A stretch of DNA of 41,775 nucleotides from an uncultured Fibrobacteria bacterium (GCA_965652255.1 CBFGVC010000001.1:1-41775); one strand, 5' to 3'. Positions 1 to 28,166 are shown, numbered from the stretch's first letter. Made by a program: numbers and translations. Notes: a model not told the origin generated them from the sequence alone.

Positions 1-76
1 ATCAGAAATCAAAAATCAGAAACAGGAAAGGGGAAACGCGTTCTTTTCTGATTTCATGTTTCCGATTCCTGATTTC
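1..76. repeat. heptamer-periodic inverted-repeat element A (possibly truncated by the window start), 3' of gene 77..964
   Basis: Left arm ATCAGAA|ATCAAAA|ATCAGAA|ACAGGAA|AGGGGAA. Right arm CTGATTT|CATGTTT|CCGATTC|CTGATTT. The perfect 10-bp pairing AAATCAGAAA (13-22) with TTTCTGATTT (45-54) was checked by hand. Confidence 0.6.
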
Positions 77-964
77 CTAGAGCGTTCCCAGCTCCCTCTT
101 GATCGACTCGAGCCTCTCGTAGTCCTCGCTCTGCAGCGCCTCGACCTTCGAGACCAAAAGCTCCAGCTTGCGCAAGGTGTGAGCGTCGAGCGAGGGCGCG
201 GCCTCGATCAGGCTGACCATCGCCTCGGTGTCCTCCGGAAAGCCGAAATCGGCCATGAAGGTTCGGAATTCCGTCACCGACCTGGCGTGATCGTCTCCCC
301 CGCCCCGAGTGTAGATCATGCGCGGGATCAGCACGGTGAGCAAATGCGACTTCCAGTCGGCGGGAGGAACTTTCGCCTCCGTCTCCTCCGGCTCGGCCGT
401 CGTGGACTCGATCGCGCCGAGGAGAGCCGCGATCTCGCCCTCCACCGCCTTGTGCTCCTGCTCCCGGTAATGCGCCTGGTAGAGAAGCGGAAAGGCGTTC
501 ACGCACAGGTGCGCGTGCGCCAGCACGGTGAAGGAGCCCAGGTAATAGACGTCGGCGTCCTGCGCCAGCATCTCCTCCTCGGAGGAAAAGTGAGCCACCT
601 TCGCGGGGATGGGGATGAAGTCGGCGTTCTTCATCGAGTCGAGACGCTCCTTGACCGCCTCGGGATCGAGCGCGCCCTCGAGTCCGCCCGTCTCGCGCGC
701 CTGCTCGATGACCTCCTCGATGCCCTTCTCCAGGGAGATTCCGAACTCCTTGCGGAAGAAGTCGCGGATGTCGCGCTGCTCCACGTAGTTGGCCGTGACG
801 GCGAGCATCCCGTTGCGAACGAGCGCCTCCAGCGGCGAGGCTTCCTCGCCGGGGGCGCGGGGCGAGTCCTCCGGGCGCTCATAGCGCACGTAGGCCACGA
901 GCCGCCCGCTCAATCGGTTCGGATCGCCCTTCTTCAACTCGGCTTTAAGCGCGGAAAAGTCCAT
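77..964 (-). CDS. hypothetical protein, 295 aa, acidic, no motif I recognise
   Basis: ATG at 962-964 and TAG at 77-79. Composition and G/C third-position bias match neighbouring real genes. The competing ORFs 54..506(-), 56..1027(+) and 631..882(-) are Arg/Gly/Pro-rich shadow frames. Confidence 0.6.
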   Translation of the reverse strand: MDFSALKAELKKGDPNRLSGRLVAYVRYERPEDSPRAPGEEASPLEALVRNGMLAVTANYVEQRDIRDFFRKEFGISLEKGIEEVIEQARETGGLEGALDPEAVKERLDSMKNADFIPIPAKVAHFSSEEEMLAQDADVYYLGSFTVLAHAHLCVNAFPLLYQAHYREQEHKAVEGEIAALLGAIESTTAEPEETEAKVPPADWKSHLLTVLIPRMIYTRGGGDDHARSVTEFRTFMADFGFPEDTEAMVSLIEAAPSLDAHTLRKLELLVSKVEALQSEDYERLESIKRELGTL

Positions 965-982
965 GGGAGGAAACTACTAAGA

Positions 983-1170
983 GGGTGGCTGGTGGGTGGT
1001 GGCCGGCGGGTAGTGGCCGGTGGGTAGTGGCTGGTGGGTAGCAGGTAGTGGATGCGGTAGTCAGGAAAAAAAGGAGGGCTCGGACCGAATACAGGAAGCG
1101 CCGAATTCAATGGACGGCGAACGATCGGTTCAAGGCCACTACCCACTACCCACCCGCCCCTACCCCCTAC
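983..1170. repeat. heptamer-periodic inverted-repeat element B, between the prs-like stop and the next gene's start
   Basis: G-rich arm 983-1060 parses as ...TAGTGGC|CGGTGGG|TAGTGGC|TGGTGGG|TAGCAGG|TAGTGGA (14-nt super-period, about 5 copies). C-rich arm 1135-1170 parses as GCCACTA|CCCACTA|CCCACCC|GCCCCTA|CCCCCTA. GTGGGTAGTGGC (1020-1031) is the exact reverse complement of GCCACTACCCAC (1135-1146). Confidence 0.75.
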
Positions 1171-2336
1171 TTCCCGTTCCCCAGGTTCGGCCTCCAGCGC
1201 GGATTCTTCGAGGACATGTCCACCGAATAGAAATCGCGGGCGAACTTGGAGGCGTCCTTGCCGAGGTACTCGAGCAGGAAGCGGGCCACCCACTTCTCGA
1301 TCTTCAGCACCACCATCTTCTTGCGCAGGCGCCCTTGGCTGTCGCGGTTGAGGATGGACGGGATGGAGTTGAGCGAGAGGATCTCGTCGAGCAGCGGCGA
1401 GTTGAGGTTCTCGCGCCCCTCGGGCGAGGCGTAGAAATGCGTCACGCCGAAGATGATCTTGCGCGGGTTGCCCTCGCGCAGGAGGCGGCAGCACTCCACC
1501 ACCGTCGAGCCGGTGCGAACCATGTCGTCGAGGATGATCACGTCGCGCCCGGCGATGCCCTCGAGGGGCACGTCGGACCGCGCGCTGACCTCCATGCGCA
1601 CCTGGCGCTCGCCGGTGCGCGACTTTTCCATCACGATGCAGCGCGCGCCGGGCAGGTCGAGCGAGGTCCGGACCTCGCGGACGAAGGGCAGCGCGCCCAT
1701 GTCGGGCGCGCAAAGGACGAGGTTGTCGCCGCCCTGCCCCGGAAAGACCATGTCGGAGTGCTTGATGTAATCGGCGTACACCTCGTTGGGGATGAGGTTG
1801 TGGAACTCCCCGCCGAAGGTCTCCCCGAACAGCTTCTGCACCTTGGAGCTGTGGTTGTGCACCGTGATCACCGCGTCCACGCCCGAGAGCTTGAGCAGCT
1901 CGGCGTAGAGGTTTGCCGTGAACGGCTGGCCGTCGAACTTCTTGAGGTCCTCGAGCGGGCGCGCCTCCTCGTCCTCGGCGCGGCGCGGGCCGCGGTCCTG
2001 CGCCGAGAAGAACAGGTCGGGCTCGACGAGCACCACCTGCCTCGCGCCGTTCTCCTTGGCGCCGCGCGCCAGCATGAGCGTGCGCATCGCCAGCGAACCG
2101 CGCGAGTCGCTGGTGGCCGCCGAGCAGATCACCACCGTCTTGCCCTCGAGCGAGCGGCCGATGCGCTCCATGTCGCCCTCGTCGCTGATGTAGCGCGGGC
2201 AGAACTCGGAGTTGGCGTAGACCTTGAGCGAGATCAGGTCGGCGATCTCGTCGCGCTGGCCGCACATGTGCGCCAGGTCGATGGCGAAGGGGTCGTCGGA
2301 GACGTTGGAGACGATGAGGACGTCGCTGTTGCGCAT
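1167..2336 (-). CDS. prs: ribose-phosphate pyrophosphokinase (PRPP synthetase) family protein, long divergent form
   Basis: PRTase/PRPP-binding loop RDVIILDDMVRTGSTVVE. VVLVEPDLFFSAQDR aligns with the Prs Y-x-x-Y-A-R-Q-D-R region but is followed by an acidic insertion of about 25 aa (GPRRAEDEEARPLEDLKKFDGQ). It then continues FTANLYAELLKLSGVDAVITVHNH, like the Prs AKLVA..L..AG.d.v.t.DLH region. At 389 aa it is longer than the usual ~315 aa. Confidence 0.72.
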   Translation of the reverse strand: MRNSDVLIVSNVSDDPFAIDLAHMCGQRDEIADLISLKVYANSEFCPRYISDEGDMERIGRSLEGKTVVICSAATSDSRGSLAMRTLMLARGAKENGARQVVLVEPDLFFSAQDRGPRRAEDEEARPLEDLKKFDGQPFTANLYAELLKLSGVDAVITVHNHSSKVQKLFGETFGGEFHNLIPNEVYADYIKHSDMVFPGQGGDNLVLCAPDMGALPFVREVRTSLDLPGARCIVMEKSRTGERQVRMEVSARSDVPLEGIAGRDVIILDDMVRTGSTVVECCRLLREGNPRKIIFGVTHFYASPEGRENLNSPLLDEILSLNSIPSILNRDSQGRLRKKMVVLKIEKWVARFLLEYLGKDASKFARDFYSVDMSSKNPRWRPNLGNGK

Positions 2337-2411
2337 TGCCTGCCTTGGAAGGCCCGGTCGGCTGCCGGGAGACGGATCAAAGGGTAGCTAAATGCGGGGA
2401 TTCTTCGGGGT

Positions 2412-2550
2412 CGAAGCTTCCTTGGGGCAAGGTAACGGGTAATGGGTAACGGGTGCGGGAGAGCACGTAGAGGGGGGGCTGGACCGGGTTCCGACGCCAT
2501 TACCCGTTACCCGAAACCCATTACCCGTTCCCGTTCCCGACGAAGCTTCG
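2412..2550. repeat. heptamer-periodic inverted-repeat element C, between the glgP stop and the prs-like start
   Basis: Left arm GGTAACG|GGTAATG|GGTAACG|GGTGCGG. Right arm CCATTAC|CCGTTAC|CCGAAAC|CCATTAC|CCGTTCC. 15-bp perfect pairing 2431-2445 with 2497-2511, and an alternative 14-bp register 2434-2447 with 2516-2529. The element is closed by CGAAGCTTC (2412-2420) and CGAAGCTTCG (2541-2550). Confidence 0.8.
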
Positions 2551-2567
2551 CCGGCGAAGGACCTCCC

Positions 2568-5111
2568 CTACCCCTCCACCTTGACCGGCGTCGTCTTCCA
2601 CACGTCGCGGTTGTATTCCGCGATGGTGCGGTCGGAGGAGAACTCGCCCATGCGCGCCACGTTGAGGATGGCCGCGCGCGTCCACCATTCGGAGTCTCGG
2701 TAGCGCTCCGAGACCTCGCGCTGGCAGGCGGCGTAGGCGGCGAAATCGGCGAAGAGCATGTACTCGTCGTGGTGGTGCAGGCCGTCGAGGAAGCCGCGGA
2801 AAAGGCCCGGATCCTCGGGGCTGAAATGCCCGGCGCGCAGGAGCCCGAGCACGGCGGAGAGGGCGGGATCGGCCGCCGCGGCCGCGGCGGGGTCGTAGCC
2901 CGAGTCCTTGCGGGCCTGCACCTCGGCGGCCGTCATCCCGAACAGGAAGAAGTTCTCGGCGCCCACCGCCTCGCGGATCTCGATGTTGGCGCCGTCCAGG
3001 GTCCCGATGGTGAGCGCGCCGTTCAGGGCGAACTTCATGTTTCCCGTGCCGCTGGCCTCGGTGCCCGCCGTGGAGATCTGCTCCGAGAGGTCGCTGGCCG
3101 GGAAGATCTTCTCGGCCAGCGAGACCCGGTAATCCTCCAGGAAGACCACGCGCAGGATCCCGCGCGTGTCGGGATCGGCGTTGACCACGGAGGCCACCCC
3201 GTTGATCATCTTGATGATGAGCTTCGCCGTGTGGTACCCCGGCGCGGCCTTGCCGGCGAAGAGGAAGGTGCGCGGCAGCATCCCGTCGCCTCGCCCCGCC
3301 TTGATCTCGTTGTAGAGGTGCGCGACGTGCAGGATGTTCAGCGATTGCCGCTTGTACTCGTGGATGCGCTTCACCTGCACGTCGAACAGCGTGGAGGGAT
3401 CGCATTCGGTGTCGTGGGCGTGGCGGATCCAGGCGGCCAAGGCCGCCTTGTTCGCCCGCTTGACCTCGCGCCAGCGCTCGCGGAACTCGCCGTCGTCGGC
3501 GAAGCGCTCCAGCGCGTCGAGGCGCGAGAGGTCTCGCACCCAGCCGTCGCCGATCTTCTCGGTGATGAGGGAGGAGAGCCGGGGGTTGGCCTTGTAAAGC
3601 CAGCGCCGGGGCGTCACGCCGTTGGTCTTGTTGTGGAACTTCTCCGGCGTCAGCTCGGCGAAGTCCCTGAGCACCCGCGACTTGAGGAGTTCGGTATGCA
3701 GCGCGGCCACGCCGTTCACGGCGCTCGATCCAACCACCGCGAGGTAGGCCATGCGCACCGAGCGGTCGGTCCCCTCCTCGACCAGCGACATGCGGCGCAG
3801 GCGGTCGCCGTCGCCGGGATAGCGCCACGAGACCTGCTTGAGAAAGCGATAGTTGATCTCGTAGATGATCTGCAGGTGGCGCGGCAGGAGCCTGCCCAGG
3901 AGTTCCACGCCCCACTTCTCGAGCGCCTCGGGGAGCAAGGTGTGGTTCGTGTAGGCGAAGGCGCGCGTGGTGATGTCCCACGCGTGTTCCCAGGAGAAGC
4001 CTTCCTCGTCCACGAGCAGGCGCATCAACTCGGGGATGGAAATCGCCGGATGCGTGTCGTTCAGCTGGATCACGGCCTTCTCGGCCAACTGGCTGCAGTC
4101 CTTGTGGTACTTCTTGTGGCGGCGGAGGATGTCGTGCAAGGTGGCCGCGCACAGGAAGTACTGCTGCTTGAGCCGCAGCTCCTTGCCGTTCATCGAGCTG
4201 TCGTTGGGGTATAGGACCTTCGAGATGCTCTCGGCCAGCGCGATGTCCTTGCTCGCCTCCACGTAGTCGCCGCTGTTGAAGTAATGCAGGCCGAAGTCGT
4301 CGGACGACTTCGCCGACCAGAGCCGCAACGTGTTCACCGTGCCGCAGCCGTAACCAGGCACCGGCGTGTCGTAGGGCGCCGCCAGGACGGTCTCGGCGTC
4401 CACCCATTCGTGAAGCTCCACTCCCTGCGCGTTGCGGCGCGTCACCACGCGCCCCTTGAAGCGCACCGGCACGGTGTACTCCGGCCGCGAGATTTCCCAA
4501 GGGTTCGGCAGGCGCAGCCAGTTGTCGGGATGCTCCTGCTGCCAGCCGTCGCGGATCTTCTGGTGGAACATGCCGTAGTCGTAGCGGATGCCGTAGCCGT
4601 AGGCGGGCAACTCGAGCGTGGCCATCGAATCGAGGAAGCACGCCGCCAGGCGGCCGAGGCCCCCGTTGCCGAGGCCGGCCTCCAGCTCCTGCCCGCGCAA
4701 ATCCTCGAGGTTGAGCCCCAGGTCGTACATGGCCTCGCGCGCCTCGGAGTCGAGGCCGAGGTTGATGAGCGCGTTGCCGAGCGAGCGCCCCATCAGGAAC
4801 TCCATCGACAGGTAGTACACGCGGCGCGCGTCGTGGCGATAGTAGGCCTGCTGCGTGGCGATCCAGCGCGCGATCAGCTTGTCGCGCGCGGCATAGGCCA
4901 GCGCGAGGTACTTGTCGTAGGGCGTGGCGGAATACTTGTCCTTGCCCAGCGACGACTCGAGATGGCGGAAGAACGCCGCCTCGATGCCGTGATGCGCGTC
5001 GGCCTGCGGAATCGAGCGCTCCTCGAGGTCACGCGACTTGGGGGAGGCCTTCGCGGGCTTGGAGCTTTTCGGGGACTTCGGGTTCGACTTGGACTTTGAA
5101 GAGGCGGGCAT
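2568..5111 (-). CDS. glgP: glycogen/maltodextrin phosphorylase (GT35)
   Basis: Canonical PLP-lysine block EASGTGNMKFALNGALTIGTLDGANIEI, with full-length similarity of motif order to alpha-glucan phosphorylases. I chose the start at ATG 5109-5111 (MPASSKSKS...), which has GGAG 6 nt upstream. The track ORF extends to 5213 through a non-coding-looking stretch. Confidence 0.95.
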   Translation of the reverse strand: MPASSKSKSNPKSPKSSKPAKASPKSRDLEERSIPQADAHHGIEAAFFRHLESSLGKDKYSATPYDKYLALAYAARDKLIARWIATQQAYYRHDARRVYYLSMEFLMGRSLGNALINLGLDSEAREAMYDLGLNLEDLRGQELEAGLGNGGLGRLAACFLDSMATLELPAYGYGIRYDYGMFHQKIRDGWQQEHPDNWLRLPNPWEISRPEYTVPVRFKGRVVTRRNAQGVELHEWVDAETVLAAPYDTPVPGYGCGTVNTLRLWSAKSSDDFGLHYFNSGDYVEASKDIALAESISKVLYPNDSSMNGKELRLKQQYFLCAATLHDILRRHKKYHKDCSQLAEKAVIQLNDTHPAISIPELMRLLVDEEGFSWEHAWDITTRAFAYTNHTLLPEALEKWGVELLGRLLPRHLQIIYEINYRFLKQVSWRYPGDGDRLRRMSLVEEGTDRSVRMAYLAVVGSSAVNGVAALHTELLKSRVLRDFAELTPEKFHNKTNGVTPRRWLYKANPRLSSLITEKIGDGWVRDLSRLDALERFADDGEFRERWREVKRANKAALAAWIRHAHDTECDPSTLFDVQVKRIHEYKRQSLNILHVAHLYNEIKAGRGDGMLPRTFLFAGKAAPGYHTAKLIIKMINGVASVVNADPDTRGILRVVFLEDYRVSLAEKIFPASDLSEQISTAGTEASGTGNMKFALNGALTIGTLDGANIEIREAVGAENFFLFGMTAAEVQARKDSGYDPAAAAAADPALSAVLGLLRAGHFSPEDPGLFRGFLDGLHHHDEYMLFADFAAYAACQREVSERYRDSEWWTRAAILNVARMGEFSSDRTIAEYNRDVWKTTPVKVEG

Positions 5112-5183
5112 GTGAAACTCCGGAGGCGGAGGCGGGCTGGCCCAATCATAACAACGGAAGAAAGGCGAGAGTAGCGCCGGGCG

Positions 5184-5248
5184 TTTGAAACAAAAGGCGG
5201 CTGAGTTGTCCATAAGTGTCCAGCTTTGTCGCCCCCTTTTGTTTCAAA
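5184..5248. promoter_or_regulatory. perfect 14-bp inverted repeat with 37-nt spacer in the glgP / methyltransferase divergent intergenic region
   Basis: TTTGAAACAAAAGG (5184-5197) and CCTTTTGTTTCAAA (5235-5248) are exact reverse complements (checked base by base). Confidence 0.6.
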
Positions 5249-6036
5249 TGTCCGGCGCCGAGGTTTACCTTTTCTTCTCCATGACCTCCCCTGCTTCCTT
5301 TTTTCTCTCCTTGGGCCTCGAACCGCTCGCATGGGAGGAGGTCCTGCGCCGCGCCGAGGCGCGGCTCGGCGAAAAGGCGTCGAACAAGACCTCGGAGTTC
5401 GCGCGGCTGCACCGCGCCTTCGTCGCCTATCCGACCGAGCGCACCGCCCGCGCCTTCTATGACTTCGTCGCAGGGAACGACCTGCACGGATTGCTCGCAT
5501 GCCATCGCTTCGATCGCCTCGTCGCCATCGCCGAATCGCTGGATGCCTCACGGCCTTTTCCCCTCGACGGCTCCTCGATCCTCGACATCGGCGCGGGCGG
5601 AGGTTTCCTTGCCACCTGGCTCCGCGACGCGCGCGGAGCGCGCGTCGCGGTCTCGGACCTTTCTCCCGCCTCCGAGGCGGCGCTGGCCGCGCAAGGCTTC
5701 GAATCGCTGCGGGACCTTCCGGAAGACAGGCGCTTCGACTTCATCCTGTGCGCCGACAGCCTCGGCGAAGTCCACTCCGACGAGGACGATTGGCTCGCCG
5801 ACGCCGCGAACGCGGGGGATCCCGCCTTCGTCGAGGAACTGGAGGCGCGCTACGGCCTCGCGCGCAAGCTGGCCGCGCTGCGCCCGCGGCTTGCCGCGGG
5901 CGGCCGCGTCGCGCTCTTCGAGCCCGCGCCCCAGGCGCACTTCTGGCGCGGCGCGGCGCGGCTTTTGGAAGGCGAAGGATGGAACGTCGAGGTCCTTGGG
6001 CCTGGGCCCGCCTGGCGCATGATCCTCAAGGCCTGA
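5248..6036 (+). CDS. class I SAM-dependent methyltransferase
   Basis: Motif I ILDIGAGGGFLATWL, followed by an acidic post-I residue (VAVSDLS) and FDFILCADSLGEV. The start is uncertain: TTG 5185, ATG 5248 or ATG 5281 are all in frame. Third-position G/C bias only becomes gene-like after 5248. Confidence 0.7.
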   Translation: MSGAEVYLFFSMTSPASFFLSLGLEPLAWEEVLRRAEARLGEKASNKTSEFARLHRAFVAYPTERTARAFYDFVAGNDLHGLLACHRFDRLVAIAESLDASRPFPLDGSSILDIGAGGGFLATWLRDARGARVAVSDLSPASEAALAAQGFESLRDLPEDRRFDFILCADSLGEVHSDEDDWLADAANAGDPAFVEELEARYGLARKLAALRPRLAAGGRVALFEPAPQAHFWRGAARLLEGEGWNVEVLGPGPAWRMILKA

Positions 6037-6110
6037 GGCCACGGGCGGCCCCGGAGGGGCGCCACTTCGGCATCCGCCGGCCCCGAATCCGTTCATCGCC
6101 CCCGAATGCT

Positions 6111-6152
6111 CCCCCTTTCCCCTCTCCGCCCCCGGGGAGAGGGGAAAGGGGG
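6111..6152 (+). terminator. 17-bp perfect GC-rich hairpin downstream of the methyltransferase gene (terminator-like, no U-tract)
   Basis: CCCCCTTTCCCCTCTCC (6111-6127), 8-nt loop, GGAGAGGGGAAAGGGGG (6136-6152). Complementarity was checked base by base. Confidence 0.5.
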
Positions 6153-6155
6153 GCT

Positions 6156-6164
6156 TGATATAAT
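6156..6164 (+). promoter_or_regulatory. extended -10 promoter candidate (TGnTATAAT) for the peroxiredoxin gene
   Basis: TGATATAAT at 6156-6164, about 135 nt upstream of ATG 6299. There is no good -35, which is usual for extended -10 promoters. Confidence 0.45.
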
Positions 6165-6298
6165 CCATCGACTTTCCTGGGGTTAGGGGCGAGGGATAAG
6201 CCAACGCCAGACCCTACCCGCTCGCAATCTTTCGATTTAGATTGATTCTAATCCCTGTGTTTTAACCGAACAAACCAACCCCCACGAAAGGATCCCCC

Positions 6299-6886
6299 AT
6301 GGCAGTTCTCGTCGGCAAAGCCGCCCCCGATTTCACCGAGGAAGTCGCGATCGGCCAGTCCACCAAGAAGATCTCGCTCTCCGATTACAAGGGCAAGAAG
6401 TACGTCGTGCTGTTCTTCTACCCGCTCGACTTCACCTTCGTCTGCCCCACCGAGATCCACGCGTTCGAGGAGGCCCGCAAGGAGTTCGAGAGCCGCGGCG
6501 CGGTGGTGCTCGGCTGCTCGGTCGACTCGGCCCACTCGCACATGGCCTGGCTGCGCACCCCGAAGAACCAGGGCGGCATCGAGGGCGTGAACTACCCGAT
6601 CATCGCCGACATCCACAAGCGCGTTTCGCGCGCCTACGACGTGCTCGACGAGGACGCGGGCATCACCTACCGCGCCTCGTTCGTGATCGACAAGAACGGC
6701 GTGGTGCAGGCGCAGGTGGTCCACCACCGCCCCATCGGCCGCAACGTGGACGAGGTGATCCGCCTGCTCGACGCGCTGCAGTACAGCGAGGAGCACGGCG
6801 AGGTTTGCCCCGCGGGCTGGACGAAGGGCCAGAAGGCCATGAAGGCCGACCTCAAGGACGTGGGCGCGTACCTCGCGAAGAAGTAA
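6299..6886 (+). CDS. typical 2-Cys peroxiredoxin (Prx1/AhpC subfamily)
   Basis: Peroxidatic Cys block FFYPLDFTFVCPTEI and resolving Cys block GEVCPAGW. At 195 aa the length is typical. Confidence 0.93.
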   Translation: MAVLVGKAAPDFTEEVAIGQSTKKISLSDYKGKKYVVLFFYPLDFTFVCPTEIHAFEEARKEFESRGAVVLGCSVDSAHSHMAWLRTPKNQGGIEGVNYPIIADIHKRVSRAYDVLDEDAGITYRASFVIDKNGVVQAQVVHHRPIGRNVDEVIRLLDALQYSEEHGEVCPAGWTKGQKAMKADLKDVGAYLAKK

Positions 6887-6905
6887 GCGAAACGCCGGCG
6901 ACGAA

Positions 6906-6944
6906 GGCCCGGTTCCCGCGAGGGGGCCGGGTTCTTTGTTTTCG
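6906..6944 (+). terminator. rho-independent terminator of the peroxiredoxin gene
   Basis: GGCCCGGTTCCC (6906-6917), GCGA tetraloop, GGGGGCCGGGTT (6922-6933). This gives 12 bp including four G:U pairs, followed by CTTTGTTTTC. Confidence 0.7.
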
Positions 6945-6954
6945 AAGCTTCGGG

Positions 6955-6983
6955 GAGGGTGGACGGTGGAAGGTAGAGGAACG
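6955..6983. repeat. left G-rich heptad arm L1 flanking the SulP segment
   Basis: GAGGGTGGACGGTGGAAGGTAGAGGAACG. GGTGGACGGTGG (6958-6969) is the exact reverse complement of 9157-9168. GGAACG (6978-6983) is the reverse complement of 9151-9156. Positions 6955-6969 match the reverse complement of 9111-9125 at 13 of 15. The arm is preceded by the palindrome CGAAGCTTCG (6943-6952). Confidence 0.6.
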
Positions 6984-7131
6984 CTACGGCGGGGCTGGAA
7001 GCCCGCCACGAAACATGGATAACAAATCCCTGTTTGCACAAGGCCTGACGCTGGACCAGAACGCATCTTCGGTTTGTTGCTCGATCATGTTGTTCATTAT
7101 TTGGGAAACCCTCTTCGAAGCGGTGCGTTGT

Positions 7132-7147
7132 GGTGGACGGTTGAAGG
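7132..7147. repeat. second copy L2 of the left arm
   Basis: GGTGGACGGTTGAAGG versus L1 GGTGGACGGTGGAAGG (6958-6973): 15 of 16 identical, in direct orientation. Confidence 0.55.
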
Positions 7148-7160
7148 AAGCATGCCTTCC

Positions 7161-7186
7161 GAGATGACGCGCGGAGGCGTCATCTC
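7161..7186 (+). promoter_or_regulatory. perfect 10-bp hairpin 33 nt upstream of the SulP start codon
   Basis: GAGATGACGC (7161-7170), loop GCGGAG, GCGTCATCTC (7177-7186). Confidence 0.5.
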
Positions 7187-7218
7187 GGGGAGTTGCGACT
7201 TATTAATTTTGAGAGTGG

Positions 7219-8958
7219 ATGGTGGGCTCCCTTGGCCCGGGTTCCGGGTTTGACAAGTCTTCCAAGGCGGCATCCTCGCCACCGCGTGATGCGCTGTACC
7301 CCAAACTTTTTTCCCTGCTAAAAGGCTATACGCGACGAGATTTCGTCGGGGATTTGTGGGCCGGTATCGTCGTCGGCGTCGTGGCGTTGCCACTGGCCAT
7401 AGCCTTTGCGATAGCCTCCGGTGTGGCGCCTGAAAAAGGGCTCGTGACGGCGGTGGTAGCCGGCTTCCTCATTTCGGCTTTGGGTGGAAGCCGAGTGCAA
7501 ATTGGCGGTCCCACCGGGGCTTTCGTCGTCATCGTCTACGGAATCGTGGAGAAGTACGGCGTTAGCGGGCTTGCCATTGCCACGTTCATGGCCGGAGCAA
7601 TGCTGGTTGCCATGGGGCTCGCGAGGTTGGGATCGCTCATGCGCTTCATCCCGCACCCGGTGATTGTCGGATTCACCAGCGGGATCGCCGTCATCATAGC
7701 GTCCACGCAGGCCCGTGACTTTTTCGGTCTAGGTATGCCGTCCATGCCCTCGGAATTCTTCGCCAAGTGGGCTGCCATTTTCCGGCACGTTGGCACGGTA
7801 AACGTTCAGGCCCTTGGCCTCGGCGTTCTTTGCGTAGCCGTTCTCATGTTTTGGCCCAAGGTGTCCCGCAAGGTTCCGGCTTCCTTGGTGGGGTTGATTT
7901 TGTGCACCGTGCTCGCACGGTGGTTCAATCTTTCCGTGGAAACGGTTGGGTCACGGTTCGGGAGTATTCCCGGCGTATTTCCCGCTCCGCACCTACCGGA
8001 CCTCGAATGGGAGATTCTCCGGAACCTGGTGCAACCCGCAATTGCAATCGCTCTCCTCGCAGGAATCGAGTCCTTGCTTTCGGCTACGGTTGCGGACGGG
8101 ATGATTGGCGGGCGGCACCGCCCCAACATGGAGTTGGTCGCCCAAGGCATTGCGAACATTGCCTCCCCGCTATTCGGAGGCATTCCGGCCACAGGGGCCA
8201 TTGCCCGCACAGCTACGAATGTCAAGAATGGGGGTAGAACACCGATTGCGGGGATAGTCCACGCACTCACGCTCCTGGGGATTATGCTGGTTCTCGGCCG
8301 TTATGCCGTGTTGATTCCCCTTTCCTGCCTTGCGGCCATCTTACTCGTGGTGGCGTACCATATGAGTGAGTGGCGCACCTTCGTCGCGCTATTCCGGGGA
8401 CCACGAGCCGACATAGCGGTATTGCTAACTACGTTCGTGTTGACGGTCGTGGTGGACCTCACGGTCGCTATCACGACGGGTGTGGTGCTGGCACTCCTGC
8501 TGTTCATGAAGCAGATGTCGGAGGCTTTTCATGTCGGTCCCCTGGCGAATGGGCAGGGACAGGAAGATATCCTCGAACGGGGCTCGATTCCTGAGGGCGT
8601 GGAAGTGTATGAGGTCAATGGTCCGTTGTTTTTTGGAGCCGCTCAGAAATTCGAGGAAGCCATAACTGCCATCAGCCTTAAGCCCAAGGCGCTCATACTC
8701 CGGTTGCGCAATCTCCTGTCCCTCGACGCCTCGGGGTTACACGCCTTGCAAAGCGTGCACAAGAATTGCGAACGACAAGGCATCGTCCTAATTCTCTCAG
8801 GGGTACACGTCCAACCGACCATTGCCCTTTTCCAGAGTGGATTGGCCGATAAAATCGGGGAGGCGAATCTGTTCCCCAACTTTGAGCCCGCCTTGGAACG
8901 GGCTCGGGAGGTTGTAGGTTCTGACACCGCGTTGACTAGCGGTTATGTCGAGGGGTAG
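7219..8958 (+). CDS. SulP family anion transporter with C-terminal STAS domain
   Basis: N-terminal block RDFVGDLWAGIVVGVVALPLAIAFAIASGV, about 10-12 hydrophobic segments, and a C-terminal STAS-like region (VEVYEVNGPLFFGAAQKFEE...LILRLRNLLSLDASGLHAL). GC is about 55-58% in two hand-counted 60-mers versus about 67% in the neighbouring prx gene. Confidence 0.9.
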   Translation: MVGSLGPGSGFDKSSKAASSPPRDALYPKLFSLLKGYTRRDFVGDLWAGIVVGVVALPLAIAFAIASGVAPEKGLVTAVVAGFLISALGGSRVQIGGPTGAFVVIVYGIVEKYGVSGLAIATFMAGAMLVAMGLARLGSLMRFIPHPVIVGFTSGIAVIIASTQARDFFGLGMPSMPSEFFAKWAAIFRHVGTVNVQALGLGVLCVAVLMFWPKVSRKVPASLVGLILCTVLARWFNLSVETVGSRFGSIPGVFPAPHLPDLEWEILRNLVQPAIAIALLAGIESLLSATVADGMIGGRHRPNMELVAQGIANIASPLFGGIPATGAIARTATNVKNGGRTPIAGIVHALTLLGIMLVLGRYAVLIPLSCLAAILLVVAYHMSEWRTFVALFRGPRADIAVLLTTFVLTVVVDLTVAITTGVVLALLLFMKQMSEAFHVGPLANGQGQEDILERGSIPEGVEVYEVNGPLFFGAAQKFEEAITAISLKPKALILRLRNLLSLDASGLHALQSVHKNCERQGIVLILSGVHVQPTIALFQSGLADKIGEANLFPNFEPALERAREVVGSDTALTSGYVEG

Positions 8959-26613: not shown

Positions 26614-26925
26614 ATGAATACGATCCGCCGCCTGCTCGCCGTCGTCCTGTTGATCGTCCTTGTGGTCGCGTTGTTCCAGAACCAGGAAAGCCTGGGGCTG
26701 GCCGTGGAGTTCGCCTTCTTCCGCTGGAGCTTCTCGCTGGTGCTGGGCTTCTGGCTGCTCTTCGCCTTCATCGCGGGCGCGGCGCTCTTCGCCGTGCTTG
26801 ACGCGTGGAGGGGCATGCTGCGCCGTATCGAGAACCGCCGGCGCGACCAGGAAACCGACGAGCTCCGCAGCGAGCTGGAGCGCCTGCGGGGCGGACAACG
26901 CGACGGGAGTCCGGATCCGCGATGA
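26614..26925 (+). CDS. LapA/YciS-like (DUF1049-type) small inner-membrane protein
   Basis: Two TM helices followed by a charged coiled tail (RRIENRRRDQETDELRSELERLR). GGAGAG lies upstream of the ATG. Confidence 0.65.
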   Translation: MNTIRRLLAVVLLIVLVVALFQNQESLGLAVEFAFFRWSFSLVLGFWLLFAFIAGAALFAVLDAWRGMLRRIENRRRDQETDELRSELERLRGGQRDGSPDPR

Positions 26926-28013
26926 GTCGCCTCCTGCGCATCGCCTTGCTTTCCTCGTCGCTGCTCGCGGGAGCCCTGCCCGTATGCCCCGCGGCGCAGG
27001 CCGCGGGCGACTCGCGCTTGGCCGATTCGGTGCGCCGGGAGGTGGGCGCGCTGGCGGCACAGGGCCGCCTCGAGCAGGCCCTCGGCCTGGTGGCTCGCCA
27101 CGGCGTGGACATGCCCGCGGCATGGCGAGCCATGTTCTCCGGCAAGCTCGAAATCGACGGTGAGGCCTCCGCGCAGGGCTATGCGGGCGCGACCGATGAC
27201 TCGGCCCCGGAACAAATGCGCGGGGAGGCCCTGTTCCGGATCGGACAGCATCACTACGCCGCCGGGCGCCACCACCTCGCCATCCCGCAGTTCCGGCAAT
27301 ACCTCGCCCATCACCCCGACGGCGCCTGGGCCGAGGCCTCGGCATACTGGATGGCCCACTCCTGCCTGCAGTACGCCCGGCAACGCGCCGGCCGCGCGGC
27401 TTACCTCGACACCGCCGAGGCCTACCTGAACCGGATAGAATCCAAGGGGCGGAACTCCTATTACTGGTCCCTCGCCCGCGCGGCCCGGGCCCGGATCCTG
27501 CTGGAGCGCGGCGACGCCGAAAGCCGTTCGGGAGCCGCCCGGGCCCTGCACGACGCCCGGTCCGCCACTCCCCCGGAGGAAACCCCGGCCGTGCTGCTGC
27601 TTTCGCTGCAAGCCCAGCCCTCCGCGCCCCAGGCAAGCGCCTGGGAGGATTCGCTGCGCTGGGCATACCCGCTCTCGCCCGAGACGCGCTCCCTGTCACG
27701 CCCGAACCCGACCATCGCGCCGACGCCGATGCCCCAGGCTGTTCCCCGGCCCCCATCGCCCCCACCCGTGACGATGGGAGGCTTCGCGCTCCAGCTCGGC
27801 GCCTTCGCCCAAGGCGACAACGCGGAACGCCTGCGCGCCGAGCTGGCCACGAAGGGAATCGACGCTCGCGTCGCGCCGATTTCCATTTCCGGCCGCGTCC
27901 TGCACCGGGTGCTCGCCGGCAACTACCCGGACGCCGAAACCGCGCAACGCGAAGGCGCGAGGATGCTGGGAGCGAGGGGGTATGAGTTCAGGGTGGTGGA
28001 GGAGAAGGAATAG
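26922..28013 (+). CDS. secreted TPR-like protein with a C-terminal SPOR (septal peptidoglycan-binding) domain
   Basis: Signal peptide MSRLLRIALLSSSLLAGALPVCPAAQA. C-terminal FALQLGAFAQGDNAERLRAELATKGIDARVAP...HRVLAGNYPDAETAQ is SPOR-like. ATG 26922 forms ATGA with the upstream stop. Confidence 0.8.
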   Translation: MSRLLRIALLSSSLLAGALPVCPAAQAAGDSRLADSVRREVGALAAQGRLEQALGLVARHGVDMPAAWRAMFSGKLEIDGEASAQGYAGATDDSAPEQMRGEALFRIGQHHYAAGRHHLAIPQFRQYLAHHPDGAWAEASAYWMAHSCLQYARQRAGRAAYLDTAEAYLNRIESKGRNSYYWSLARAARARILLERGDAESRSGAARALHDARSATPPEETPAVLLLSLQAQPSAPQASAWEDSLRWAYPLSPETRSLSRPNPTIAPTPMPQAVPRPPSPPPVTMGGFALQLGAFAQGDNAERLRAELATKGIDARVAPISISGRVLHRVLAGNYPDAETAQREGARMLGARGYEFRVVEEKE

Positions 28014-28166
28014 AACAGTACGACAATACAACAATAGAACACAGCGGCTGTCCCCGCCTTCCCTCGCCCCACAGTCTCGTCATCTAATTGTTGTATCGTT
28101 GCTCTGCCGTTTTGTAGTGCTGCTCCGCTACCGCATTGTTGCATTGCCGTATTGTTCTATTGTTCC
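28006..28166. repeat. long imperfect inverted-repeat element D (A/C-rich arm versus 8-nt-periodic ATTGTT arm), between the SPOR gene and tlpA
   Basis: Left arm AATAGAACAGTACGACAATACAACAATAGAACACAGCGG (28009-28047). The reverse complement of the right arm (28125-28166) is GGAACAATAGAACAATACGGCAATGCAACAATGCGGTAGCGG. About 22 of 25 core positions match, and one of the three mismatches is a G:U wobble. The right arm parses as ATTGTTGC|ATTGCCGT|ATTGTTCT|ATTGTTCC. Confidence 0.7.

Follow-up and report, generated by a model that had tools for sequence, protein, structure and literature searches.

In a 41,775-nt contig from an uncultured Fibrobacteria bacterium (GCA_965652255.1, CBFGVC010000001.1:1-41775; this whole stretch, at its full length, is referred to as the window), three consecutive minus-strand genes are each followed by a long hairpin whose two arms are built from tandem repeats of degenerate heptamers. 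The question raised by this locus is what these hairpins (elements A, B and C) are, and whether they serve as punctuation between genes. The hairpins belong to a known class of repeats, which in the genome that contains the window is demonstrably tied to cassettes carrying an S23p gene. The architecture of the elements, their abundance, their unit families, their placement after stop codons, the sharing of units with the cassettes, and their rapid gain, loss and replacement were all observed directly. We put at roughly 0.55 the probability that the window hairpins, together with a fourth element of the same design, are gene-less counterparts of S23p cassettes, i.e. near-neutral or selfish insertions that would be cut by RNase III when transcribed.

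A reading of the window made from its sequence without database searches (the sequence-only reading) had described A, B and C as pairs of inverted 7-nt tandem arrays flanking a spacer. TRF (Tandem Repeats Finder) located period-7 arrays at 1-22/45-76 (A), 984-1051/1136-1153 (B) and 2431-2454/2500-2539 (C), with 3.1-7.7 unit copies per array, and an inverted-repeat search paired these arrays with each other, which bears out both the positions and the architecture common to all three. The list of three was correct as far as it went; it missed the fourth element, which has octamer arms (28009-28165), and it missed the link to S23p. The features of the window are as follows.

1..28, element A, purine-rich arm (ATCAGAA ATCAAAA ATCAGAA ACAGGAA), which meets the contig start and may be truncated
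29..44, element A, spacer or loop, including the palindrome AACGCGTT
45..76, element A, pyrimidine-rich arm (TTTCTGA TTTCATG TTTCCGA TTCCTGA TTTC), which adjoins the stop codon (77-79) of gene 77-964
984..1054, element B, G-rich arm (~10 units, GGTGGCT/GGTGGGT/AGTGGCC...), with a 14-nt super-period
1055..1133, element B, spacer whose sequence is unique and, on the gene-sense strand, includes a T7 run
1134..1166, element B, C-rich arm (CCACTAC CCACTAC CCACCCG CCCCTAC), which adjoins the stop codon (1167-1169) of the phosphoribosyl-pyrophosphate-synthetase-like gene
2412..2421, element C, outer clamp CGAAGCTTCC, a 9/10 match to the palindrome CGAAGCTTCG
2425..2454, element C, purine-rich arm (GGTAACG GGTAATG GGTAACG GGT)
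2455..2496, element C, spacer of unique sequence
2497..2539, element C, pyrimidine-rich arm (CCATTAC CCGTTAC CCGAAAC CCATTAC CCGTTCC CGTTCCC)
2541..2550, element C, outer clamp CGAAGCTTCG, a palindrome found in another intergenic repeat family as well
28009..28041, fourth element, octamer arm (AATAGAAC AGTACGAC AATACAAC AATAGAAC), with the stop codon of gene 26805-28013 inside the first unit
28088..28165, fourth element, complementary degenerate octamer arm (…GCATTGTT GCATTGCC GTATTGTT CTATTGTT), with an ATG 5 nt downstream
77..964, minus strand, gene for a 295-aa protein without a Pfam family, its synteny preserved in five close congeners
1167..2336, minus strand, phosphoribosyltransferase or Prs-like gene (389 aa)
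2568..5213, minus strand, glycogen/starch phosphorylase gene (glgP)
6953..6980, plus strand, lone degenerate G-rich heptad array (GGGAGGG TGGACGG TGGAAGG TAGAGGA), which follows CGAAGCTTCG and a peroxiredoxin gene and has no clear partner arm

The spacers of the window elements are 16-80 nt long and contain no open reading frame (ORF), and the arms of element B are unequal (~10 units vs ~4.5). When folded as gene-sense RNA, with 200 dinucleotide shuffles as controls, A gave -29.1 kcal/mol (z -5.0), B -77.2 kcal/mol (z -2.9) and C -73.5 kcal/mol (z -5.8), i.e. all three were far more stable than their shuffled controls. The fold of the fourth element had a z-score of -5.2, and DNA folds of window elements gave z-scores of -3.9 and -4.0. 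Shifting the register in steps of 7 nt brought back pairing of 71-100% in A, B and C alike, and the slipped registers that had been verified for C are therefore a property of all three. No Rfam family reached its gathering score in positions 1-8000 of the window, where there were only sub-threshold chance matches to hairpins.

We used the same approach on the source bin of the window (G000, in which the window is contig 1), which comprises 2.26 Mb in 318 contigs, has 66% GC and is 86% complete. An element was defined as arrays of one unit, found by TRF and paired in inverted orientation within 400 nt; the gene calls were crude ones made for this analysis from GC content at third codon positions (GC3). 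Periods 7 and 8 were both over-represented among the TRF rows (544 and 400, respectively). The scan, which the sequence-only reading had proposed, found 170 inverted pairs with strict settings and 231 with relaxed settings, compared with 9 direct pairs, which serve as the false-positive control. An element is present in 10% of the gaps that separate called genes; among gaps of at least 60 nt the share is 15%, and ~9% of intergenic bases fall within elements. The typical element is 116 nt long overall; its arms measure 31 nt (~4.4 units, each 7 or 8 nt), its spacer measures 45 nt, and its arms pair over a median of 24 bp (at least 20 bp in 179 of 228 elements). Such arrays disrupt short-read assemblies; because they sit at 63 of the 636 contig ends (10%), the element count for G000 is a lower bound.

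The units fall into ~12 families, of which an octamer ACA type is the largest (61 elements). The AAATCGG/AAATCAG/AAATGCG family, which includes the unit of element A, has 32 elements, TTACGAA/TTACGAG has 31 and CGTGGAT/GTCGGGA has 28; further families are GAAGGGT, GGTAACG (the unit of element C), GGAATGAT and TGGGTAG (the unit of element B). Since the units of the window (ATCAGAA/AAATCGG, TGGGTAG and GGTAACG) are each found at other loci of G000, the claim that the hairpins are sequence-unique stands among A, B and C and falls genome-wide. The spacers are unique, with an all-vs-all BLAST comparison yielding only short matches between repeat units, which rules out MITEs (miniature inverted-repeat transposable elements) or any copying of whole elements. 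A repetitive extragenic palindromic (REP) system with its RAYT transposase was also ruled out, as no Y1 transposase (PF01797) was found in G000 at its 86% completeness, and the view that the hairpins are not one REP/MITE family agrees with both results. An origin of the arrays by a reverse transcriptase or a telomerase-like enzyme was considered as well, and no RVT_1 domain was found in G000. In all but 6 of the 170 elements (164), purine richness marks the 5' arm. Adjoining gaps share a unit family in 14 of 39 neighbour pairs, vs 8.6 expected (p 0.036; contigs C88, C3:19900-22544, C156, C215 and C37), which hints at local spread. A comparison of arm-vs-arm matching within and between elements was null in the homogeneous TTACGAA family, and this test is biased by the element definition.

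Arrays of the same kind also enclose genes. G000 contains five clear matches to the small, four-helix-bundle S23p family (PF05635/TIGR02436) and one borderline match, within a 471-aa ORF, that scores 33.9 bits against the PF05635 cut-off of 33.8 bits. Three of the five clear S23p genes are bracketed by inverted heptamer arrays.

C263:1-563, S23p cassette, arms 1-47 and 529-563, unit CGGGTAA, the unit of element C
C164:4077-4598, S23p cassette, array 4077-4119 and the contig end, unit AGTTACG
C72:5074-5661, S23p cassette, arms 5074-5103 and 5623-5661, unit AAGAGTG

When array pairs 230-3000 nt apart were collected from G000, these three cassettes were the only ones that enclosed a single gene in normal polarity, and no other gene of G000 is bracketed at a distance of 400-600 nt. 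The units of the cassettes recur exactly in gene-less hairpins of the same genome (CGGGTAA in 9, AGTTACG in 8 and AAGAGTG in 3), whereas only 4 of 43 units from foreign cassettes are found in its gene-less elements (Fisher p 0.002). Bracketing extends to 21 of 31 S23p genes in a same-family sample of 31 genomes, and among 80 close S23p homologues from Bacteroidota, Planctomycetota, Chloroflexota, Cyanobacteria, Poribacteria and other phyla, bracketing was seen in 30 and a one-sided array in another 41. The rule that the purine-rich arm comes first is not general, as the 5' arm is pyrimidine-richer in 16 and purine-richer in 6 of these 30 cross-phylum cassettes, with 8 ties, and the rule is also broken in a cassette of the congener G004 (L053). 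Eleven of the cross-phylum loci have the unit TTAGCTG in common; their proteins are 59% identical and their third codon positions 39% identical. Because the unit has been kept even though third positions are near saturation (0.39), this comparison argues that TTAGCTG itself may be under constraint. The S23p gene is co-oriented with its upstream gene in 63 of 76 cases, compared with 65% of gaps being co-directional in G000, which fits expression by read-through transcription.

Heptamer repeats of the short tandemly repeated repetitive (STRR) type date from the 1980s-90s, and intervening sequences (IVSs) of 23S rRNA with an S23p ORF from the 1990s. The canonical STRR units of heterocystous cyanobacteria are CCCCAGT, TTGGTCA and CAACAGT; the units of G000 differ from these, and its relatives show that the genome is not cyanobacterial. 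The sequence-only reading knew of no description of paired, inverted heptad arrays in a high-GC bacterium, and here it was mistaken: Xanthomonas campestris and X. axonopodis, with ~65% GC, have 70-75 convergent pairs of GGGAATC arrays per genome, ~90% of them intergenic and near ORF ends (Rehm et al. 2015, PMC4692102). The G000 elements resemble these arrays in being inverted heptamer pairs of at least 3-4 units that are intergenic, lie near an ORF end and favour convergent over divergent gaps, again at high GC, and in Xanthomonas their length and sequence vary between close species. The difference is that the single unit of Xanthomonas is G-rich, with the potential to form G-quadruplexes (G4), whereas G000 has ~12 families, some of them A-rich heptamers and octamers for which G4 is impossible. 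One of the GGGAATC arrays spans the start of XCC0516 (supplementary table of Rehm et al. 2015, PMC4692102). The product of XCC0516 has been crystallised as an S23p pentamer (PDB 2GSC), and no PDB entry matched the G000 S23p better (E 7e-22).

The 23S rRNA IVS of Coxiella contains an S23p ORF and has a 28-bp terminal stem with a strain-variable number of GACAGAT heptamers, and RNase III cuts within this stem (PMC4990558). The window elements are like the S23p-bearing IVSs of Coxiella burnetii and Leptospira in having a long terminal stem of tandem heptamers around a loop, and the three G000 cassettes (C263, C164 and C72) share this design exactly, with the ORF in the loop. Unlike these IVSs, the window elements have no ORF and lie between protein genes rather than in helix 25 or 45 of 23S rRNA; there is no 23S gene in the G000 assembly, and the 23S of one congener carries no insert. 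The TAACTGA heptamers of the STRR type in Beggiatoaceae are intergenic, occur in many copies and are often followed within a few bases by a start codon, and their patchy spread suggests horizontal transfer; the heptamer sets of 'Maribeggiatoa' comprise 169 direct and 1 inverted (PMC4679880). The G000 elements are likewise many-copy intergenic tandem heptamers, whereas STRR/TAACTGA repeats are mostly single direct arrays and G000 has 231 inverted vs 9 direct pairs. A further likeness is to REP/BIME (bacterial interspersed mosaic element) repeats with RAYT (REPtrons), in which a small gene lies between inverted hairpin-forming repeats and gene-less copies are dispersed after genes. However, the arms in G000 are tandem arrays of several unrelated units instead of one conserved palindrome of 20-40 nt, the Y1 transposase was not found, and, in contrast to RAYT, we know of no catalytic activity for S23p. 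We found no published link between such arrays and S23p, the Coxiella, Xanthomonas and TAACTGA-repeat papers included. What the present case adds is another lineage, the matching of units within a genome, the co-orientation of S23p with host genes, and the presence of differing units at orthologous sites.

The turnover of the elements was followed in congeners. The glgP-prs-gene 77-964 synteny is kept in six of them, with Prs proteins 82-85% identical. Elements B and C are absent in all six, where the corresponding gaps measure 5-165 nt and 78-123 nt; in congener G009 another element, with units CAGCCGT/GCTGATC, lies directly after the prs stop codon, at the B site. Across 179 orthologous gaps compared between G004/G010 and G000, an element was present in both in 4, in the relative only in 4, in G000 only in 16 and in neither in 155. 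Co-occupied gaps exceed chance (odds ratio 9.7, p 0.006) and the units differ at the shared sites; on these comparisons, either certain sites would be hit repeatedly or elements would be replaced in place. One and the same stop codon is adjoined in G011 by an S23p cassette (unit AAAGCGA) and in G000 by a gene-less octamer hairpin of 95 nt (C191:2005-2100), the site of a G004 cassette holds a gene-less GGTAACG hairpin in G000 (C89:3800-3900), and the C164 cassette is kept in G011 with the same unit, AGTTACG. The S23p gene at C4:30913-31221 of G000 has no arrays; at the same site in G008 (L051) it is flanked by GGTTGGT arrays, so arrays can be gained or lost around a resident S23p gene. The absence or replacement of elements at orthologous sites points to insertion and fast turnover, and no target-site duplication was evident at the sites compared.

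The position of the elements relative to genes bears on the question of punctuation. In G000 the median distance is 9 nt from a stop codon to the element and 27 nt from the element to the next start codon, i.e. the placement after stop codons noticed at three loci holds genome-wide. The share of gaps that hold an element is 19% where the neighbouring genes converge, 15% where they are co-directional and 9.5% where they diverge (p 0.02). A role as terminator is unlikely. TTTT occurs within 12 nt past the 3' arm in only 8 of 192 elements, and 48 of 108 co-directional gaps have no more than 30 nt between the element and either gene, which leaves no room for a promoter. Because so few carry a U-tract, the elements are not classical terminators, and an intrinsic (Rho-independent) terminator was rejected for the class. 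Many elements fill a whole co-directional gap and lack a U-tract, and from this we infer that the hairpins are transcribed inside operon mRNAs and are read through as part of the operon transcript.

The stems of these hairpins are probably cut by RNase III, given that they are 20-27 bp long, that an RNase III gene (rnc) is present in G000 and that the Coxiella IVS offers an analogy. If the elements are gene-less counterparts of S23p cassettes, the hairpin would be transcribed within the operon mRNA, its ~24-bp stem would be cut by RNase III as is that of the heptamer-stemmed Coxiella IVS, and cleavage would excise or insulate the insert. The elements would then be tolerated as selfish or near-neutral insertions, possibly with side effects on mRNA processing, and would not be dedicated terminators. 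They sit between cistrons and could alter operon expression.

Several results weigh against this interpretation. No S23p gene or trace of a cassette interior was found in the spacers (best tblastn E 0.19; no blastn match), a test of low power given how short the spacers are, and the idea that gene-less elements are recognisable decayed S23p cassettes was dropped with the same reservation. No cassette was found for the octamer ACA, AAATCGG and CGTGGAT families in an assembly of 86% completeness that is interrupted at arrays. Over 81 co-directional gaps, RNA folded with equal stability from the sense and the antisense strand (p 0.22), with no strand-specific G-U signature of selection acting on RNA. 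The S23p-positive congeners have 75 (G000), 37.5 (G004) and 25 (G010) elements per Mb and the S23p-negative G001 and G005 have 0 in 400 kb each, which is suggestive of S23p presence tracking element density within the genus; however, this contrast amounts to one clade split, for which phylogeny and GC content are confounders. Another genus, g4, is element-poor both with and without S23p. In a further genus, g16, S23p is present in 21 of 32 genomes.

A wider proposal is possible, and we advance it tentatively as something that would have to overcome odds against it. S23p and the tandem-array hairpins may form one two-part genetic element, comparable to RAYT/REP and spread across many phyla. The promoter-less S23p gene would ride on host transcripts and be freed by an RNase III cut in the repeat-built stem; the protein would then bind, protect or propagate arrays of its own unit in trans, and in this way the gene-less hairpins that lie in their hundreds directly after stop codons would be seeded. 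If this proposal were true, STRR-type repeats, the GGGAATC arrays of Xanthomonas and the intervening sequences of 23S rRNA, each of them unexplained and treated separately in the literature searched, would be one phenomenon. One G000 gene gap in seven (of at least 60 nt) holds a hairpin, and the same units enclose S23p genes, which turns the proposal into a testable hypothesis with two concrete parts: that RNase III cuts the hairpins and that S23p recognises its own repeat.

Of the explanations that do without S23p cassettes, the one that survives best is that the hairpins are host-selected RNA elements, i.e. REP-like stabilisers of 3' ends, attenuators or bidirectional terminators, in which the tandem build would provide hairpins with many registers. 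Their placement right after stop codons, their excess in convergent gaps, their strong folds and their multiple pairing registers are as such elements would have them, and some units give an A-rich 5' arm and a T-rich 3' arm, like bidirectional terminators. We still regard this explanation as unlikely. TTTT follows the stem in just the 8 of 192 elements noted above, termination in the 48 co-directional gaps without promoter room would silence the downstream gene, the folds are symmetric between sense and antisense, and the elements are not kept at orthologous sites in congeners; S23p genes inside the same arms would also be left unexplained.

Somewhat less probable again is that the elements are by-products at the DNA level, i.e. 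heptamer and octamer microsatellites expanded by polymerase slippage and copied to the other arm by intrastrand template switching, which would yield neutral repeats prone to forming cruciforms or, with G-rich units, G4 elements of the kind proposed for Xanthomonas. The unequal copy numbers of the arms of B (10 vs 4.5 units), the arrays at 63 of 636 contig ends where the assembly breaks, the fast turnover and the equal fold stability on both strands would all follow from such an origin, and GGGAATC arrays form G4 in vitro (Rehm et al. 2015, PMC4692102). Slippage alone, however, does not account for the recurrence of ~12 units at over 200 loci whose spacers are unique, and neither the purine-rich 5' arm in 164 of 170 elements nor the retention of TTAGCTG around S23p across phyla is explained. 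Element B has GGG/GG tracts, whereas G-tracts are absent from the unit of A (ATCAGAA) and from most families (TTACGAA, ACATCACA, AAATCGG), and G4 is impossible for the A-rich ATCAGAA, TTACGAA and ACATCACA.

It is improbable, in our judgement, that the arrays are primarily putative DNA binding sites for S23p or another protein, with a nucleoid or regulatory role and with the potential to form hairpins being secondary. Cassettes and gene-less elements share units within a genome, one unit is conserved across phyla, and S23p is a toroidal pentamer related to Avd, the nucleic-acid-binding protein of diversity-generating retroelements, as might be expected of such a system. The strict inverted pairing and the 20-27 bp of arm complementarity speak for a stem and not for independent sites, and within one subfamily S23p similarity does not track the unit (0.635 vs 0.605 identity, p 0.08). 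Assembly artefacts of a fragmented metagenome bin can practically be dismissed: element A and many arrays do lie at contig ends, but B, C and the fourth element lie between intact genes inside a 41.8-kb contig, and this architecture is also seen in assemblies made independently, among them few-contig relatives and complete genomes of other phyla.

Some smaller features of the elements were noted in the course of the analysis. The motif GAAC[GA]C, read inward, occurs at 15% of inner arm edges in G000, compared with a background of 1.6% (~10-fold), and does so in several unit families; at the boundaries of S23p cassettes it occurs in only 2 of 42. The RNase III gene of G000 is itself trailed by an octamer-armed hairpin (C14:16576-16637, in the region C14:15917-16637). 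Beside the borderline PF05635 match there is a small hairpin at C146:881-964, whose arms have a 9-nt period (TGGACGAGA / GTCCATCTA).

The palindrome CGAAGCTTCG was found exactly at 2541-2550 and 6943-6952 and with a 9/10 match at 2412-2421, as the sequence-only reading had reported, with 0.11 occurrences expected in the window. It occurs 48 times in G000, vs ~2-3 expected from composition; 38 of the copies lie outside called genes and only 3 are near a heptad hairpin. It is part of a second intergenic repeat family, in which it appears in the conserved contexts GGGGTGAGGCGCGTAGCGA-CGAAGCTTCG and GGTTCGGGATTCTTYGG...CGAAGCTTCG. Its loci include C2:20082, C3:14039/17954, C24:5956, C57:7545-8030, C138:3023 and C145:152, among others, and at C57:7545-7690 a 33-nt unit is repeated five times.

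Start codons are preceded by C/U-rich leaders (TTTCCTCCC-ATG, TTCCCCC-ATG) and not by a GGAGG Shine-Dalgarno sequence, as seen at 955-976 of the window and at many element flanks, and CTAGTTTCC, which lies upstream of gene 77-964, is conserved in congeners. The window also contains two inverted repeats without tandem units, one a perfect 17-nt repeat (CCCCCTTTCCCCTCTCC/GGAGAGGGGAAAGGGGG) at 6111-6152 and the other a pair of 28-nt arms, 89% complementary, that lies across the start region of glgP (5174-5258).

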